From the NCBI GenBank assembly GCA_963850905.1, contig CAWKMU010000003.1, forward strand, positions 3,136,001 to 3,200,000: 64,000 nt of DNA, written 5' to 3'. Below are positions 2,944 to 59,598 of this stretch, piece by piece (position 1 is the first letter of the stretch; each line of letters begins with the position of its first letter). Both the position numbers and the translations under genes were made by a program. The notes beneath the pieces are model-generated. The model ran no database searches, was not told the origin of the DNA, and worked only from the letters and a program-made list of their open reading frames with translations. The DNA comes from an uncultured Gemmatimonadales bacterium. Its GTDB lineage: Bacteria > Gemmatimonadota > Gemmatimonadetes > Gemmatimonadales > Gemmatimonadaceae.

Positions 2944-4572
2944 ATGGCTACAAAACAACCCAACATCCTGTTCATCATGGCCGATGACATCGGCTGGATG
3001 CAGCCGGGCATCTATCACCGGGGGTTGATGGTCGGAGAAACGCCGAACATCGACCGCATTGGGAACGAAGGCGCAATCTTCATGGATTATCTCGGGATGC
3101 AGAGCTGCACGTCCGGACGATGTGCCTTCATCACCGGGATGTTGCCGCTGCGTACCGGGATGATTCCCCCGCAACTCCCGGGAAGTCCATCGTGGCTGCG
3201 AAAGGGCACCCCGCACCTGGCAAGGTTCCTGCGCGATCTGGGCTATAGCACGGGCCAGTTTGGCAAGAATCACCTCGGCGACCACGCCGAGTCTCTACCC
3301 ACGGCGCATGGGTTCGAGGAGTTCTGGGGGTACCTGTACCACCTCGACGCGATGCAGCAGGTGAGCTTCCCCGACATCAACAGCAGTGAGACGGTGCAAG
3401 GCATCGCGCCGGTCTGCAGGAACACGCCGCTCCCCGGCATCGCCGAAGATCCCAACGCGGTAGACCCCGCAACCACAACCTGCCTGACGCCTCCGCGTCC
3501 GGTCCTCTGGTGTCACTCCTCGGACGGCACGCAGAAGAACCAAACGTGCAAGGACGAGGGTCCGATTTCGCTGGAGCGGTCGAAAACGATTGACGAGGAG
3601 ATTTCCGCCAAGGTCATCGACTTCCTTGATCGCAATGACCCGAAGAAGACCAACAAGCCCTTCTTCGTCTGGTATAACCCGGCGCGCATGCACATCACCA
3701 CCATGCTGCCTGACAAGTACATGGACATGGTGGGTACGAAGGGCGGCAAGGACTGGGGCGTCAACGAAGCCGGCATGAAGCAACTGGACGACAACATCGG
3801 ATATGTGCTCCAGAAGCTCGAGGCCATGGGTCAACTGGATAACACCATTGTCGTCTTCACCACGGATAACGGCGCCGAGGCGATCAGTTACCCGGATGGT
3901 GGCGTCACGCCCTTCAAGGGTCAGAAGGGTGAATCATGGGAAGGGGGCTACCGCTGTCCGATGGTCGTCCGCTGGCCGGGTCATATCAAGCCGGGCACGA
4001 TCAAGGACCAGATGTTCGCGGCGCTCGACTGGTTGCCGACGCTGGTAGACATCGCCGGCGGACCCAAGGGCGATGATCTGAAGAAGCAGATCGAGGCCGG
4101 GAAGTATCCCGGCATCGTCAAGACCACGCTCGACGGTTTCAACCAGCGCGCCTATCTCGAAGGCACCTCGAAGAAGTCTGCGCGTGAGACCTTCTTCTAC
4201 TTCTCGGGTGCGACGCCGTCCGCGGTGCGGTACCACAACTGGAAGATGTACTACACCATGTCAGCACCTGGGGCGACTGGCTGGATCATGCCACTCGTTC
4301 CGTTCCACATGACCCTCGTCCAGAACATCAAGCGCGATCCCTTCGAGCAGGCGGTCGGGGAGGATGAAAAGACCGTCAACGGCATTGGAGGCGCGCTTGC
4401 GGGCCCGGTGGGCGCCTATTTCTACGACTGGAACATCCTGCCGATCGGCCAGCAGCTCTGGTACAAGGAGCTCATGTCCTTCAAGGAGTTTCCTCCGATG
4501 CAGGCGCCGGAAACCTGGAACCTGGATGGCATCCTGAAACAAGTGGCAGCGGCTGGCCACCCGAGCGACTAG
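2944..4572 (+). CDS. Arylsulfatase (Cys-type, FGly-dependent)
   Basis: PNILFIMADDIG, SCTSGR sulfatase motif, GKNHLG, FTTDNG, EGGYR; AAGGAG SD upstream. Confidence 0.93.
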   Translation: MATKQPNILFIMADDIGWMQPGIYHRGLMVGETPNIDRIGNEGAIFMDYLGMQSCTSGRCAFITGMLPLRTGMIPPQLPGSPSWLRKGTPHLARFLRDLGYSTGQFGKNHLGDHAESLPTAHGFEEFWGYLYHLDAMQQVSFPDINSSETVQGIAPVCRNTPLPGIAEDPNAVDPATTTCLTPPRPVLWCHSSDGTQKNQTCKDEGPISLERSKTIDEEISAKVIDFLDRNDPKKTNKPFFVWYNPARMHITTMLPDKYMDMVGTKGGKDWGVNEAGMKQLDDNIGYVLQKLEAMGQLDNTIVVFTTDNGAEAISYPDGGVTPFKGQKGESWEGGYRCPMVVRWPGHIKPGTIKDQMFAALDWLPTLVDIAGGPKGDDLKKQIEAGKYPGIVKTTLDGFNQRAYLEGTSKKSARETFFYFSGATPSAVRYHNWKMYYTMSAPGATGWIMPLVPFHMTLVQNIKRDPFEQAVGEDEKTVNGIGGALAGPVGAYFYDWNILPIGQQLWYKELMSFKEFPPMQAPETWNLDGILKQVAAAGHPSD

Positions 4573-4707
4573 GCGAAGAGCGTCAACTCGTAGGGAGCAA
4601 AGTCGAGACTCGAGAGAGTCCGTTCCAACGGACGGCGGAAGCGAGGAAGGGGAGTGCCCTTCCTCGCTTCCTGTCGGGATGCGCCGATTCTCAGAGGCAG
4701 AGGCAAA

Positions 4708-5686
4708 ATGAAATCCCAAATGGCAGAGGGACGTGTCCAACCAACCGATTCGCCGCGCCATCATGATATGACGTGGATACCCGGGGGAACATTCCACATG
4801 GGGTCCGAAGATTTCTATCCCGAAGAGCGGCCAGTGCATGAGGTGAGCGTAGATGGCTTCTGGATGGATTGCCACGAAGTCACCAATGAACAGTTCGCGC
4901 GCTTCGTAGAGGCGACCCGCTATAAGACGCTAGCCGAGCGCCCGCTCAATCCTGCGGACTTCCCTGGCGCCCCTCGCGAGAATCTTGTTCCCGGTTCCAT
5001 GCTCTTTCACAAGACCGACGGGCCGGTCGACACGCGCAACTACGCCAACTGGTGGGCCTGGGTACCGGGAACGAGTTGGCGCCATCCGCTAGGTCCTGCA
5101 TCGTCGCTCGAAACCTTCGCCCAACACCCCGTCGTGCACGTTGCCTATGAAGACGCCGAGGCGTATGCAAACTGGGCCGGCAAAGAATTGCCGACCGAAG
5201 CGGAGTGGGAATTTGCCGCGCGCGGTGGACTTGACGGCAAGACATTCACCTGGGGCGATGAGCCTCTTCGCGATGGCCAGGTGATGGCGAACACTTGGCA
5301 GGGAGAGTTTCCCTGGCAGAACTTCCTCGACGACGGCTATGAAGGGACGTCCCCGGTCGGATCGTTCCCGCCGAACGGATACGGCTTGTACGACATGGCG
5401 GGTAACGTATGGGAATGGACGTGTGATTGGTTCGTGCGGCGCCACGCCGATGAAGTCGGCACGGCGTGCTGTGGCCCTGCAGTCAATCCTCGCATTGTTT
5501 CGCCCGCCAAGAGTTACGATCTCGCGCAGCCCGCAGTTCCGGATTCCGCGCAAAGTCGTCAAAGGCGGCTCGCACTTGTGCGCGCCCAACTACTGCCTCC
5601 GCTATCGTCCCGCGGCTCGGCAGCCACAGATGATCGACTCTGGTATGAGCCACATCGGATTTCGCTGCATTACACGCAAGCGTTGA
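4708..5686 (+). CDS. Formylglycine-generating enzyme (SUMF1/FGE family); frameshift at about 5530
   Basis: F-x-[33 protein letters not shown]-terminal [20 protein letters not shown] and HIGFRC lie in the +1 frame (ORF 5339..5686). Confidence 0.9.
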
Positions 5687-53536: not shown

Positions 53537-55071
<1,535 letters not shown>

Positions 55072-57338
55072 CCGGAGTGACGAGTAAGCCATGCGCGAGC
55101 TTCGGCTCAAGCGTGGCGGAAAGTCCTCGGAAGTCGCCCGCACGCACGTCTGGATCTCAATCTCGGTTGGCAAATGGCGCACACGCGCTGTTTGACAACG
55201 GATAGCAGTAGTGATCGTGGGATAACGAATCGACACGAGAAATGGCAATGGAGCCGGCTGGCGTTGAGGCGCTCGCAAGAGCAACTCGGCGACGGCAGCT
55301 GCACGAGCCGTTTCACTTGTTATGTGCACATGTATGGGCAACCATGCATGTGTGCTGTAGATCGCGCGTGCTCTGCTTGACACATTGCCAATTTGTGGTC
55401 AAGCGAGCGAAAGCATGTGGGGGATGCCTGGGCACACGAAGGCGATGAAGGCCGTGGCAAGCTGCGATAAGCCAAGGGGAGCGGCACACACGCTATGATC
55501 CTTGGATGGCCGAATGGGGAAACCCGGCGGTGCGCAAGCACCGTCATCTCGTCGCAAGACGAGAAGCGAACCTGGGGAACTGAAACATCTCAGTACCTAG
55601 AGGAAGAGAAATCAACCGAGATTCCCGAAGTAGCGGCGAGCGAACCGGGAACAGCCCAAACCGTGGAGCCTTCGGGCGCCGCGGGGTTGTAGGACCCACG
55701 GACGCGATGAGCGGAGGTAGCTGAAGTCGCCTGGAAAGGCGCGCCAGAGACGGTGAGAGCCCGGTACGCGAAACCAGTCGCTTGTCGTAGTGGAGTTCCT
55801 GAGTAACGCCCGACACGAGAAACCGGGCGTGAAGCTGGGGGGACCACCCTCCAAGGCTAAAGACTCTCGTGTGACCGATAGTGAACGAGTACCGTGAGGG
55901 ACAGGTGAAAAGCACCCCTGGGCGGGGAGTGAAATAGTTCCTGAAACCACATGCTTACAAGCGGTAGGAGGGTGACGCGCGTCTTCGGATGCGTGGGCGC
56001 CTAACTGCGTGCCTTTTGCATTATGATCCGGCGAGTTACTGCTCGGGAGCAAGGCTAAGCCGCTCGGCGGCGGAGCCATAGCGAAAGCGAGTCCTGTAAC
56101 GAGGGCGACTGAAGTTCCCGGGCGTAGACCCGAAGCCAGGGCGATCTACCCATGAGCAGGGTGAAGCTCGGGTAACACCGAGTGGAGGCCCGAACCGTTG
56201 TGGGTTGAAAACCGCTCGGATGACTTGTGGGTAGGGGTGAAAGGCCAATCAAGCCTGGAGATAGCTGGTTCTCCCCGAAATCTATTGAGGTAGAGCCTCG
56301 AGGCGTGTTCACAGGAGGTAGAGCGACTGGATGGGCGCAGGCTGCAGAGCGCAGTACTAACCCCAACCAAACTCCGAATGCCTGTTGAATGGACCTCGGG
56401 AGGCAGTCGACGAGCGATAATGTCCGTCGGCGAGAGGGAAAGAACCCAGAACCACAGCTAAGGTCCCGAAGTGGCCGCTGAGTATAGCGAAGGATGTGTA
56501 CGTGCCGCGACAACTGGGAGGTTGGCTTAGAAGCAGCCATCCTTTAAAGAGTGCGTAATAGCTCACCAGTCCAGCGTGTATGCGCCGAGAATGGTCGGGA
56601 TTAAGCGGCCCGCCGAAGCTTGGTCTTGTTGCTTTTGCAACAGGGGTAGGGGAGCGTTCCCCGTGCTGTGAAGCCCCGGTGGAAACCATGGGGTGGAGCG
56701 AGGGGAAGTGAGGATGCCGGAATGAGTACGCGCAAACGCGGGTGAAAACCCCGCGCACCGTAAGCCCAAGGATTCCTGCGCCATGGCAATCAGCGCAGGG
56801 TGAGGCGGACCCTAAGGCGAGGCCCCAGAGGCGTAGCCGATGGACAGCCGGTTAAAATTCCGGCCCCGCCGTCCGGGCGTTATCACCCATCAGGGGACAC
56901 GGGAACGAAGCGGCAGCGGCCACGTGGAGGGCCGTCTAACCCAGTAGGCGCAAGCCGAGAGGGGAATGCGAGGGGAGGGGGCAACTCCGAACCGAGTGCC
57001 GTAGAGTCGACCGGCAAGAAAAGCCTGACTGGGGAGTCCGTACGACGTCCGTACCGTAAACCGACACAGGTGGGCGAGGCGAGCAGCCTCAGGTGAACGA
57101 GTGAAACGTGGTCAAGGAACTCGGCATAATGATCCCGTAACTTCGGAAGAAGGGATGCCGCTCTTGGTTGCAGGGTTTTCCCCTGTCGCTAGGATCGGCC
57201 GCAGCGAATCGGCCCAAGCGACTGTTTAGCAAAAACACAGGTGTGTGCCAAGCCGCACAAGGCGCCGTATACACACTGACGCCTGCCCGGTGCCGGAAGG
57301 TTAAGGGGAGAGGTTAGCCGCAAGGCGAAGCTTTGAGC

Positions 57339-57375
<37 letters not shown>

Positions 57376-58067
57376 TAACCCCGCGTGCTACCGCGGATGG
57401 CCGTTACAAAATCTGGCTATATGCTGGAACAGCTGTTGGATGTCACGGTACCGAGGTTTCCAACGTACTCGGTGATAATCCGATGACTGCAGCCAATCAG
57501 CAGGAAAGACTGTCGATCACAGACCAGGAAAAGTGGTTCCTCGCTGGCTTCATCGAAGGTGAGGGCTCGGTCTGCGTCTCCATGAAGAGCTTACCAACAC
57601 ATCGATTCGGCTTCTACGTACACCCCGAGTTTTTTCTGTATCAGTACCGGGGGTATCCGCAGATGCTCGAGTTGGCCCGCGCAATGTTTGGCTCGGGTAG
57701 CATTTTTCCGAAACCAGGAAATGAGCGAGTGTTGGTCTACGCGATCCGAAGCCGAAGAGTCATCGCCGAAAAGGTGATTCCCTTCGTTCGGGAGTACATG
57801 GTCTTCGCGCCACGCAGAGCTGTCTACGAGCGGTTTTGCGAGATCGTCGAAGCAATGGAACGCAACGAACACCACTCGAGAGATGGAATGGTGCGTATCG
57901 TCGAAATGGCGTACACGCTCAATCCGACCTCGAAAGGCAAGGAGCGGAAACGAACCTTGCGGGAAGTGATTGACAGAATCCTCAGAGACTACACGCCAGA
58001 CTCCGGTGCGAGTCATCCGGAGATGATATAGTCCGTTCTGCATGGCGACATGCAGCTAACACACAAG
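57376..58067 (+). mobile_element. Group I intron at 23S position L1923 (692 nt)
   Basis: Exon ends in U, intron ends in G; IGS GCCGTTA (57400-57406) pairs TAACGGT with a U-G pair; P ATATGCTGGAA, Q AATCAGCAGG, R TCAGAGACTAC, S GATATAGTCC; P3 TCTGGC/GCCAGA. Confidence 0.95.
57483..58031 (+). CDS. Single-motif LAGLIDADG homing endonuclease, I-CeuI-like
   Basis: KWFLAGFIEGEGS..FGFYVHPEF..EKVIPF resembles recalled I-CeuI KLFLAGFLEGEAS..FGLVVDPEF..EKVIPF; intron lies in the I-CeuI target. Confidence 0.92.
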   Translation: MTAANQQERLSITDQEKWFLAGFIEGEGSVCVSMKSLPTHRFGFYVHPEFFLYQYRGYPQMLELARAMFGSGSIFPKPGNERVLVYAIRSRRVIAEKVIPFVREYMVFAPRRAVYERFCEIVEAMERNEHHSRDGMVRIVEMAYTLNPTSKGKERKRTLREVIDRILRDYTPDSGASHPEMI

Positions 58068-58122
<55 letters not shown>

Positions 58123-58375
58123 CGACTTGGGCACTGTCTCGACCACGTGCTCGGCGAAATTGCAGTCTCGGTGAGGATTCCGAGTCCCCGCAGCAGGACA
58201 AAAAGACCCCATGCACCTTTACTGTATCCTGTCATTGAGCATTGCCCCGAACTGTGTAGCATAGGTGGGAGCCGTTGAGGCCCAGGCGCTAGCTTGGGCG
58301 GAGGCAACAGTGAAATACCACCCTGTTCGTGTGATGCTCTCACGAAGGCGAGGCAAACCCTCCCTCGGACCGTGG

Positions 58376-58408
<33 letters not shown>

Positions 58409-58659
58409 GAAAGTGTAACGGAGGCGCGCGCATGGTTCCCTCAGCGCGGTCGGTACTCGCGCCTATAGAGTGTAACGGCAGAAGGGAGCCTGACGGTGAG
58501 AGCGACAGCTCGAACCGGGTCGAAAGACGGCCGTAGTGATCCGGTAGCCCGGTGTGGATCGGCTATCGCGCAACGGATAAAAGGTACGCTGGGGATAACA
58601 GGCTTATCGCGCCCGAGAGTTCACATCGACGGCGCGGTTTGGCACCTCGATGTCGGCTT

Positions 58660-58693
<34 letters not shown>

Positions 58694-58740
58694 CCGGCTG
58701 TTCGCCGGTTAAAGTGGTACATGAGCTGGGTTCAGAACGT

Positions 58741-59052
58741 AGACAACACTGCGTTGCCAGGAAGTAATTCCTGGAATAACTCAACTGGCTCATATCGGTG
58801 AAGCCCTCCTGGAGCGTCGAACGGCTCCAAAGGGTAATACCGAGGGAAGGCTGGTAATTGTGGACCCTACGATCCTTGCAGAAGCGATCGTAGAGTCAGG
58901 CGAAATACGCACAACATTACCTTGCCCCCGTAGAGACTGATCTGATACGGAGAGAGTCGTCGGTGATGCCGACGGCTAATACGCCAGTCTCCTTCGTTGC
59001 AAGCGAAGGATGAAGGTATAGTCCATGCCACCAGAAATGGTGGAAGAACATG
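58741..59052 (+). mobile_element. ORF-less group I intron at 23S position L2593 (312 nt, IA-type)
   Basis: AGAACGT|...G|CGTGAGAC; IGS GCGTT at 58751; P ATATCGGTGAA, Q AATACCGAG, R GTAGAGACTG, S AAGGTATAGTCC; P3 ACTGGC/GCCAGT; extra hairpins between P7 and P3'. Confidence 0.93.
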
Positions 59053-59480
59053 CGTGAGACAGTTCGGTCTGTATCCGCTGTGGGCGTTGGAAGATTGCGG
59101 GGCGTGGACCCTAGTACGAGAGGACCGGGTCGAACTGCCCGCTCGTGTCCCGGCTGTGGCGCCAGCTGCAACGCCGGGTAGCGATGGCAGGCGGAGATAA
59201 CCGCTGAATGCATCTAAGTGGGAAGCTCCCCCCAAGATGAATCTTCCCTGGAGCCTTGAGCTCCCTGAAGGGCCGTGAGAGACTATCACGTCGATAGGCC
59301 GCATGTGGAACGTCCGCAAGGACCTCCGAGCAAAGCGGTCCTAATCGCCCGTGAGGCTTGACTACTTCCGTAGGGATGACGCGTGCGTTGTCCCTGTAAT
59401 TGAATCCAAGCAGAGCACTGCGATCTACAAAAGATTCCGCATCACACGATCACTGCTGTTGCCCGAATGTCTCCATATAT

Positions 59481-59598
59481 CGCTGGCGACTAGAGCGTAG
59501 GGGCCACACTCGTTCCCATTCCGAACACGATCGTTAAGCCCTACAGCGCCAATGGTACTCCGCTCGAGAGAGCGCGGGAGAGTAGGCCGTCGCCGGCA
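59481..59598 (+). rRNA. rrf: 5S rRNA
   Basis: GCTGGCGAC/GTCGCCGGC terminal helix, CCCATTCCGAAC, GGGAGAGTAGG. Confidence 0.96.

Follow-up and report, generated by a model that had tools for sequence, protein, structure and literature searches.

A mobile group I intron with an intact, I-CeuI-like homing endonuclease gene probably interrupts the 23S rRNA gene of an uncultured Gemmatimonadales bacterium at position L1923. We infer its splicing and homing, and the dimerisation and cleavage activity of its enzyme, and place the probability of this reading at roughly 0.8. Selfish elements of this type are already known, and they turn out to be common in uncultured bacteria. The window (the whole 64,000-nt stretch of DNA analysed here) begins at base 3,136,001 of contig C3 in a metagenome-assembled genome of an uncultured soil bacterium (82% complete, 4.49 Mb, 6 contigs). 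The rRNA operon lies inside a multi-megabase contig and contains the following features.

55397..59365, plus strand: 23S rRNA host gene (Rfam LSU_rRNA_bacteria, 2480.8 bits, model positions 1-2925)
57376..58067, plus strand: group I intron at 23S L1923, 692 nt, P2-less, an exact split of conserved 23S sequence
58741..59052, plus strand: second group I intron, ORF-less, 312 nt, at L2593 after GAACGU (Intron_gpI, 27.8 bits, E 2.8e-5)

At the L1923 junctions, TAACTATAACGGT ends at 57375, the 692-nt insert occupies 57376-58067 and CCTAAGGTAGCGAA begins at 58068. Position 57375 is joined directly to 58068 in relatives without the intron. The insert lies directly 3' of U57375, which matches E. coli U1923 under what we take to be the helix 69 numbering of E. 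coli. This numbering fits the neighbouring intron 8 nt downstream, which falls at the L1931 position. It also agrees with the name of the I-CeuI target, the 'n.1923 LSU target site', in the section of the I-CeuI literature cited here (PMC3315327). L1923 is the 3' base of helix 69, and the region is part of the subunit interface. Without both introns the 23S is 2965 nt long. The gene is single-copy: across the whole assembly, the intron with its flanks and exon 2 each have one match. The L2593 intron has a minimum free energy z-score of -7.35 and contains no endonuclease-size ORF. It is absent from all relatives that cover its site.

The ribozyme core of the L1923 intron is made up of the following elements.

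57369..57375, plus strand: P1 5' strand, UAACGGU, the last 7 nt of the 5' exon; pairs with 57400-57406 over 7 bp
57381..57396, plus strand: P1-loop hairpin, CCGCG/CGCGG, predicted from sequence
57400..57406, plus strand: internal guide sequence, GCCGUUA, the P1 3' strand (helix 1 of the tested structure)
57412..57417, plus strand: P3 5' strand; pairs with 57995-58000
57422..57502, plus strand: P4-P5 domain, with P4 57422-27/57497-502, P5 57432-35/57490-93, P5a 57438-41/57478-81 and P5b 57450-55/57468-73
57503..57516, plus strand: 5' strands of P6 (57503-04) and P6a (57510-16); pair with 57980-81 and 57970-76
57985..57991, plus strand: P7 5' strand, R element, with bulged A57986; pairs with 58029-58034
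58001..58022, plus strand: P8 hairpin
58038..58055, plus strand: P9 hairpin with a GCGA tetraloop
58067, plus strand: terminal G (omega-G), 3' splice site

The P, Q, R and S elements lie at about 57420-29, 57495-504, 57979-92 and 58023-34. The structure was tested as 61 pairs in 11 helices across 15 aligned related introns, which gives 907 pair cells. Standard pairs are found in 93.1% of these cells. When the partners are slid by 1-3 columns, pairing falls to 33-43%; this control favours the structure, which was modelled on the window sequence itself. None of 500 shuffles reaches the observed pairing or covariation, and 26 of the 61 pairs have compensatory changes on both sides. The fold exceeds chance.

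All core helices (P1 and P3-P9) are present, including the P3/P7 pseudoknot and the P4-P6 domain, with P3, P4, P5, P6, P6a, P7, P8 and P9 each 94-100% paired. P1 is paired in 98.1% of cells, and all 15 sequences retain its splice-site U·G pair (U57375 with G57400). P4 is invariant. P5 is 98.3% paired with two compensatory pairs, P6 and P6a are 100% and 94.2% paired with four, and P7 is 98.9% paired with two. Both-side changes occur in three of the six pairs of P3 (100% paired), in all six of P8 (94.4%) and in six of the seven of P9 (100%). P5a (71.7%) and P5b (63.1%) are lineage-specific. The relatives have differing hairpins in the P1 loop; this region aligns poorly, so its pairs are left out of the pair count. 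The terminal base is G in 14 of the 15 introns, the exception being an A in the Caldiserica locus (L019). P10 is weak: the 3' exon can form about one pair with the guide region.

At gathering thresholds, the Rfam matches in the window are all rRNAs or tRNAs, and the L1923 intron is seen at E-value thresholds alone. The initial annotation, made from the sequence of this DNA without database searches, had proposed an Infernal scan with group I models. That scan recovers the 3' core of the intron (RF00028, Intron_gpI, E 9.8e-7), but its 33.6 bits fall below the gathering score of 50. The 5' half is misaligned by cmscan because about 460 nt of ORF lie in L6. In genome G004, the copy of the intron at L1923 is ORF-less; it scores 63.4 bits and exceeds the gathering score. 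The two halves of its core are identical to those of the window intron at 106 of 116 and 80 of 89 positions (about 90%). The proposal of a group I intron is thus borne out by covariation and by this copy, and the claimed 692-nt split, U-G splice pair, terminal G and P/Q/R/S core are exact. Assignment to subgroup IB4 is suggestive and a matter of likeness, namely the absence of P2 and a site common to archaeal IB4 introns.

The endonuclease gene overlaps much of this core.

57471..57476, plus strand: putative Shine-Dalgarno-like GGUGAU, 6 nt upstream of the AUG and partly in the P5b stem
57483..58031, plus strand: homing endonuclease gene, 182 aa, uninterrupted (Pfam LAGLIDADG_1, fold, selection)
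57540..57569, plus strand: LAGLIDADG motif LAGFIEGEGS, residues 20-29, the single motif

The ORF begins in the 3' side of P5 and crosses P4', P6, the L6 loop, P6', P7, P3' and P8. Most of it lies in the loop between the P6 and P6a strands, and its UAG stop falls within the S element, the 3' strand of P7. In most relatives, the position of GGUGAU is occupied by GAGGAGGUGA. The protein scores 46.4 bits with Pfam PF00961 (LAGLIDADG_1; cut-off 23.1), with residues 20-122 aligned to profile positions 1-102 of 102. An alignment of 52 homologues shows no variation at residues L20, A21, G22, E25, G26, E27 and G28, and by analogy with the family E27 is the presumed catalytic acid. The AlphaFold model (pLDDT 85.1) has an alpha-beta-beta-alpha-beta-beta-alpha core, with helices at 12-27, 60-69 and 91-105 and strands at 28-36, 44-55, 73-77 and 80-88. 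The top Foldseek match to this model is I-CeuI (E 6.2e-13, TM 0.78, 30% identity), with I-Vdi141I and I-TnaI close behind (8.0e-12). There are 128 PDB matches at E<=0.001, and among the matches listed all are LAGLIDADG enzymes. In a profile search, I-CeuI scores 111.8 bits as a single domain and the next best single domains score 87.0-87.2. I-CeuI is the best solved match by both fold and per-domain profile and shares the insertion site, in line with the I-CeuI-like label of the initial annotation.

Selection on the gene was measured in central codons, clear of the overlap with the ribozyme core. There, dN/dS is about 0.12 against the copy in genome G008 and 0.11-0.30 against six further copies with unsaturated dS. 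The endonuclease gene is under purifying selection. With the open frame and the Pfam match, this upholds the description of the ORF as intact. The suggestion of a new rare-cutting specificity fares less well: since the enzyme would recognise the same universal sequence, its specificity probably differs little from that of I-CeuI. The activity that the initial annotation ascribed to the homing element is likewise putative.

Within the genus, the L1923 site varies. In G000 and G008 the intron there bears the gene; in G004, whose exons are 99.3% identical, it is ORF-less, with the deletion lying exactly between the P6a strands. The 23S genes of genomes with filled, ORF-less and empty alleles are 94-99% identical. 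G005 (locus L003) has an L1923 insert with a frameshifted endonuclease gene and a foreign 5' end: its first approximately 110 nt are of the L1931 type and the remainder is of the L1923 type. Either some copies are decaying or the G005 assembly is chimeric. This is the only truly frameshifted endonuclease gene; at loci L004, L015 and L017 the frames are open and continue beyond the 3' splice site. The L1923 intron is present in further genomes of the genus (G004, G005 and G008), and the site is empty in G001, G002 and G006. G001 was considered as an ORF-less L1923 carrier and rejected, as its sequence places the intron at L1931. The presence of filled and empty sites within one genus supports the claimed mobility, and a same-genus Gemmatimonadales genome supports the Gemmatimonadota host.

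The endonuclease has 499 metagenomic relatives. At 12 of the 12 genome loci found, in at least seven other lineages, the intron is likewise at L1923. The view that 23S introns are confined to a handful of bacterial lineages no longer holds, given these relatives and lineages and the insertions described in the cited part of PMC11270868.

In the core, the L1931 introns of the genus share about 80% identity with the L1923 intron, and the L1931 enzyme of G004 is 39% identical to the L1923 endonuclease. It is conceivable, if doubtful, that the L1923 and L1931 ribozymes of the genus exchange modules, the guide and endonuclease gene moving while the approximately 80% identical core stays, with G005 as a natural recombinant.

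For the window intron, the proposed pathway is as follows. Folding of the precursor rRNA would form the group I core, with the guide at 57400-06 paired to the end of the 5' exon. An external guanosine would attack after U57375, and the freed exon would then attack after G58067. Joining of the exons would restore helix 69. The intron RNA would be translated from the AUG at 57483 into the 182-aa single-motif LAGLIDADG protein, which would act as a homodimer and cut the universal L1923 sequence in intron-less copies. Repair from the intron-bearing allele would copy the intron in.

An intron that splices and a protein that no longer homes, with vertical inheritance only, is an unlikely alternative to this pathway; the protein would then be a maturase, or inactive and undecayed. 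The cited part of PMC3984707 reports maturase-like activity for a LAGLIDADG protein encoded by a 23S intron of Thermotoga. Since most of the ribozyme core is also coding sequence, RNA constraint could explain part of the conservation of the ORF, but the dN/dS values come only from codons outside that overlap. The frameshifted copy of G005 and the ORF-less copy of G004 are also consistent with loss of homing. Against it, the acidic residues of the LAGLIDADG motif are invariant in the 52 homologues. The filled and empty sites in close genomes, and the occurrence of the intron-gene pair at L1923 in at least seven other lineages, are hard to explain without homing.

Soil RNA was compared with the whole 23S by mapping Logan contigs from four metatranscriptomes (X9, X10, X11 and X13) at 97% likeness or higher. 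Joints from 57375 to 58068 are found in three of the four (11, 13 and 9 contigs); the shorter side never exceeds 28 nt. The flanking sequence is universally conserved and numerous joint variants differ in their letters, so that these joints are indistinguishable from rRNA of intron-less organisms. RNA contigs do not cover the intron body, and the two core ends are covered at a trace depth of 1.6-8.6.

Retention of the insert in the mature 23S, or its excision without ligation to leave fragmented rRNA like that of intervening sequences, is improbable. A precedent for the former comes from Simkania, whose 23S rRNA reportedly contains a group I intron that is not spliced (Everett et al. 1999). 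The catalytic core helices, the P1 U·G pair and the terminal G of the L1923 intron are, however, kept by compensatory change across phyla, which a retained or RNase III-cut spacer would not need. The insert also interrupts the helix 69 region at the subunit interface in the sole 23S gene, so the ribosome would depend on its removal. Least credible is an assembly artefact in which the intron of another strain or organism was stitched into the operon: the genome is metagenome-assembled, rRNA operons are prone to chimeras and the G005 copy looks chimeric, but the operon lies within a multi-megabase contig, G008 carries the same intron at the same place, and DNA runs X1-X4 hold 81-89% of sampled words of the intron plus flanks, although these runs are possibly the source sample itself and so do not count as independent support.

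A mobile intron with a homing enzyme at L1923 extends the range of this pair. Its hosts so far are a green-algal chloroplast and archaea, to which Gemmatimonadota and bacteria generally are now added. The pair is widespread yet unannotated in metagenome-assembled genomes. PCR, I-CeuI mapping and rRNA gene callers may be misled in such lineages. The family represents hundreds of natural variants of an enzyme aimed at one universal 23S site. The genus is a compact natural case of the cycle of gain, decay and loss of a homing element. Module exchange, if true, would show a route by which an rRNA intron reaches a new site 8 nt away, and on that reading the 499-member bacterial family would also be an extensive natural pool of enzyme variants able to cut at the I-CeuI site. 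The general understanding of homing elements is unchanged by these findings.

In the open-access literature searched, no match was found for an L1923 group I intron by that name. No group I intron in gemmatimonads was found there either, and the nearest match, in the part consulted, concerns inteins. The window enzyme and I-CeuI are both single-motif LAGLIDADG proteins, and the former presumably also acts as a homodimer. In both, we take the final acidic residue of the motif to be a glutamate and not an aspartate. The likeness is one of site, fold and profile; identity is only 30%, the protein has 182 aa here versus 207 in the crystallised I-CeuI chain, and the host is a bacterial chromosome here versus a chloroplast for I-CeuI. 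The chloroplast LSU intron of Chlamydomonas eugametos that encodes I-CeuI has the same insertion site, between the universal TAACTATAACGGT and CCTAAGGTAGCGA, according to the cited section of PMC3315327.

The remaining systems are compared as far as the cited sections describe them. Bacterial 23S introns with single-motif LAGLIDADG genes are found at L1917, L1931, L1951 and L2593 in Thermotoga, Simkania, Coxiella and Synechococcus (Haugen et al. 2007, PMC1995217). As in the window intron, the ribozyme lacks P2 and the ORF extends from a peripheral loop into P7, P3 and P8; several introns can be present in one 23S gene. L1923 is missing from the four bacterial sites in the table of that paper, and the guide sequence and endonuclease lineage differ from those of the window intron.

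The 23S insertions of CPR (Patescibacteria) encode LAGLIDADG_1 proteins (Tsurumaki et al. 2024, PMC11270868). These are also group I intron-like with a single-domain LAGLIDADG gene, and ORF-bearing and ORF-less forms occur at one site, as at L1923 here. Cleavage of its own insertion site and dimerisation are demonstrated for the CPR enzyme I-ShaI (PMC11270868). The CPR sites in the cited section are 1917, 1931, 1952, 2593, 2604 and 2657, positions that the authors give as approximate and among which 1923 is not named. The host of the window intron is not a member of the CPR.

Archaeal IB4 introns at LSU/1923 and LSU/1931, many of which carry LAGLIDADG genes, resemble the window intron in both gene and site (Nawrocki, Jones & Eddy 2018, PMC6125680). 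Their hosts are archaea, unlike the bacterial host here. They co-occur with IA3 introns at LSU/2593 (PMC6125680), the same combination of sites as in the window gene.

Rfam identifies a sole rRNA operon in the window, made up of three genes:
53537-55071, 16S rRNA
55397-59365, 23S rRNA
59482-59598, 5S rRNA

The 16S-23S spacer (55072-55396, ~325 nt) contains no tRNA gene in the Rfam scan. The 23S match covers 3969 nt of the window against a model of 2925 positions, so the gene carries ~1 kb of extra sequence. In a reading of 57200-58250, the 5' exon TAACTATAACGGT ends at 57375 and the 3' exon CCTAAGGTAGCGAA begins at 58068, with 692 nt between them. The split of the 23S gene by 692 nt, claimed in the initial annotation, is confirmed to the base. 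By E. coli helix 69 numbering, the last base of the 5' exon is presumably U1923 (site L1923). This numbering agrees with the neighbouring intron of relatives, 8 nt downstream at the L1931 position, and with an excerpt of PMC3315327, which assigns I-CeuI to an "n.1923 LSU target site". The intron with its flanks, the endonuclease gene and 23S exon 2 are each present in single copy in a search of the 6-contig assembly (4.49 Mb, 82% complete). Because this is the sole 23S gene and the site lies at the subunit interface, removal of the insert is presumably required for a working ribosome.

At gathering thresholds, Rfam gives no match inside the L1923 insert. With E-value thresholds instead, 57812-58055 is hit by Intron_gpI at 33.6 bits (E 9.8e-7), under the gathering score of 50. 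In this alignment R, P3', P8, S and P9 are good, and the 5' part is mis-placed within the ORF. The structure was therefore drawn by hand:
57369-75 / 57400-06, P1, with a U57375·G57400 pair
57412-17 / 57995-58000, P3
57422-27 / 57497-502, P4
57503-16 / 57970-81, P6 and P6a
57985-91 / 58029-34, P7, with a bulged A
58001-22, P8
58038-55, P9, with a GCGA loop
58067, terminal G at the intron 3' end

P5, P5a and P5b are also present, the P1 loop contains a hairpin, and P2 is absent. The fold was tested on 15 introns from the same site (the window, three same-genus and eleven other-lineage copies); locus L012 was excluded, as it coincides with L004. Standard pairs occupy 93.1% of 907 pair cells, both sides change in 26 of 61 pairs, and none of 500 shuffles attains the observed pairing or covariation score. 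When partners are slid by 1-3 columns, pairing drops to 33-43%, a control that favours the structure because it was drawn on the window sequence. Covariation is strongest in P8 (6/6 pairs) and P9 (6/7 pairs). P5a (72% paired) and P5b (63%) are lineage-specific. The same-genus genome G004 has an ORF-less, 253-nt copy at L1923, whose core halves are identical to the window intron at 106/116 and 80/89 positions. This copy scores 63.4 bits with Intron_gpI, over the gathering score, and Rfam places its P1, P3, P4, P6, P8 and P9 as in the hand-drawn structure. It is independent support for the group I fold. The covarying core and the score of the G004 copy thus support the assignment as a group I intron made in the initial annotation.

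The ORF at 57483-58031 (182 aa) is a full-profile match to Pfam LAGLIDADG_1 (46.4 bits, cut-off 23.1), and residues 20-29 form its single LAGLIDADG motif, LAGFIEGEGS. Translation starts within the 3' strand of P5, and NQQERL is encoded by the Q element together with P6. The frame occupies the L6 loop, re-enters the core through P6', R/P7, P3' and P8, and stops at a UAG within the S element. This resembles the overlap of ORF and ribozyme described for other bacterial 23S introns in an excerpt of Haugen et al. 2007 (PMC1995217). In L004 (the 23S locus of the same-genus genome G008), L015 and L017, the S element lacks an in-frame stop, and the open frame continues beyond the 3' splice site into exon sequence.

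The AlphaFold model (52 homologues, pLDDT 85.1) has the expected alpha-beta-beta-alpha-beta-beta-alpha core, and the acidic motif residues are invariant across the 52 aligned sequences. The best Foldseek match is I-CeuI (2ex5; E 6.2e-13, TM 0.78, 30% identity), with I-Vdi141I and I-TnaI close behind. In the overall ranking of the sequence searches, two-domain fungal enzymes stand above I-CeuI. Per domain, I-CeuI is best with both a single-protein query (73.6 vs 56.3 bits) and a family-profile query (111.8 vs 87.0 bits). Because I-CeuI ranks first by Foldseek and per domain, "I-CeuI-like" is a fair description at this level of identity, and the uninterrupted, I-CeuI-like frame claimed earlier stands. 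Over the central 139-141 codons, outside the overlap with the RNA core, dN/dS is 0.12 against the G008 copy (dS 1.06) and 0.11-0.30 against six other copies with unsaturated dS.

Within the genus, intron content varies.

Introns in the 23S genes of the window's genome and same-genus genomes (exon identity is to the window)
G000 (window): L1923 with gene; L2593 without ORF
G008, exons 94.5-98.3%: L1923 with open gene, 691 nt, 81% amino acid identity; ~300-nt L1951 insert
G005, exons 96.3-98.6%: 684-nt insert at the L1923 place; ~300-nt L1951 insert
G004, exons 99.3-99.7%: L1923 without ORF, 253 nt; L1931 with a different LAGLIDADG gene; L1951 insert
G001, exons 97.0-99.2%: L1923 empty; inserts at L1931 and L1951
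G002, exons 96.9%: no introns
G006, fragmentary 23S matches: L1923 and L2593 empty
G003, G007, G009: 23S not found in these assemblies

The L1931 enzyme of G004 is 39% identical to that of the window. The G004 introns lie on the reverse strand of their locus, L005 (~3481-4760 of the reverse-complemented locus); the L1931 intron is preceded by an 8-nt micro-exon, and the L1951 insert is ~278 nt. The L1931 introns of G004 and of L020 end in UCA directly before AGCGAAAUU, and restoring the exon therefore needs a non-G last base. The L1923 intron of Caldiserica (L019 3582) ends in A. A non-G last intron base is said to have a precedent in Coxiella, from work of Raghavan et al. 2007. The G005 insert (L003 3480-4163) starts after CUAAGGU and has the guide CCUUAGG, both L1931-type, followed by L1923-type sequence after the first ~110 nt. 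Around codon 10, 2 nt are missing from its endonuclease gene. Either the two related introns (L1931 and L1923) recombined to give this insert, or it is an assembly chimera.

The rest of the extra length in the window 23S is a second group I intron, a 312-nt insert at 58741-59052, which follows GAACGU at L2593, the position of the I-CreI intron. It matches Intron_gpI with 27.8 bits (E 2.8e-5), and its minimum-energy fold recovers P1, P2, P3, P8 and P9 (z -7.35). There is no endonuclease-size ORF inside it. The intron is absent from every relative covering the site, and a stretch of ~66 nt in it resembles (78%) the L1951 inserts found in this genus.

Among the 13 more distant relatives whose 23S covers L1923, 12, counting one from the genus itself, read straight across it (G011, G015, G016, G020, G024, G025, G026, G032, G034, G037, G039 and the same-genus G006). 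Of 401 genomes sampled evenly across the phylum, 11, G000 included, contain a LAGLIDADG match at E<=1e-10, with identity above 40% in G000 alone; these counts are lower bounds because many assemblies may lack rRNA. All ten other matches (L025-L034) lie within 23S genes, around positions 1917-1951. One of them, in G281 (L025, ~1287-1978), is an insert of ~692 nt exactly at L1923 with a 36% identical enzyme. G016 and G086, the latter among these ten, are flagged as unpublished.

A wider search finds 499 relatives of the endonuclease at E<=1e-3 from 533 candidates. The 120 that are listed are 60-100% identical, mostly from short metagenome contigs, and two carry names (WOR-3 and Acetithermum). 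When each species is represented by a single genome, 12 loci with the endonuclease gene are found, hosted by one Gemmatimonadales, one unclassified "bacterium", one Anaerolineae, two Fraserbacteria, one Melainabacteria, one Deltaproteobacteria, one Caldiserica and four Actinomycetota or Solirubrobacterales. Each of these 12 genes lies within a 668-723-nt insert exactly at the L1923 junction. With 499 relatives and 12/12 loci at this site, the earlier claim of rarity in bacteria is not borne out. Several of these 23S genes have additional inserts at L1931, L1951 or L2593 (loci with further inserts: L013, L017, L018 and L020). The Melainabacteria locus has 404 nt at L2593, the Deltaproteobacteria locus 707 nt at L1951, and the Solirubrobacterales locus an L1931 intron beside the L1923 intron. 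L013 has a ~960-nt insert that follows position 2319, numbered on the window 23S after splicing.

Structure, gene and population pattern are observed here, and the biochemical steps are proposed from the family. GTP-initiated self-splicing would restore the 23S rRNA, and the intron would be translated into a homodimeric LAGLIDADG enzyme. This enzyme would cut empty L1923 alleles, and repair from a filled allele would follow. The mobile-intron interpretation, apart from its rarity and activity claims, is supported; splicing and cleavage are predicted.

A search of open-access literature for group I introns with L1923 or with Gemmatimonadota found nothing relevant. In an excerpt of a 2007 compilation, bacterial endonuclease-bearing rRNA introns occur only at L1917, L1931, L1951 and L2593 (PMC1995217). 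A 2024 survey of CPR bacteria, also in excerpt, gives approximate positions 1917, 1931, 1952, 2593, 2604 and 2657 (PMC11270868). L1923 is not named in these portions of the two compilations. Given this search and these compilations, the L1923 element has probably not been described before in this phylum. It belongs, as an ordinary example, to a class that is well understood, and public data contain it in abundance. Its site is shared with the green-algal chloroplast I-CeuI intron (excerpt of PMC3315327) and with archaeal IB4 introns, which have L1923 among their sites, and archaeal IA3 introns occur at 2593 (excerpt of PMC6125680).
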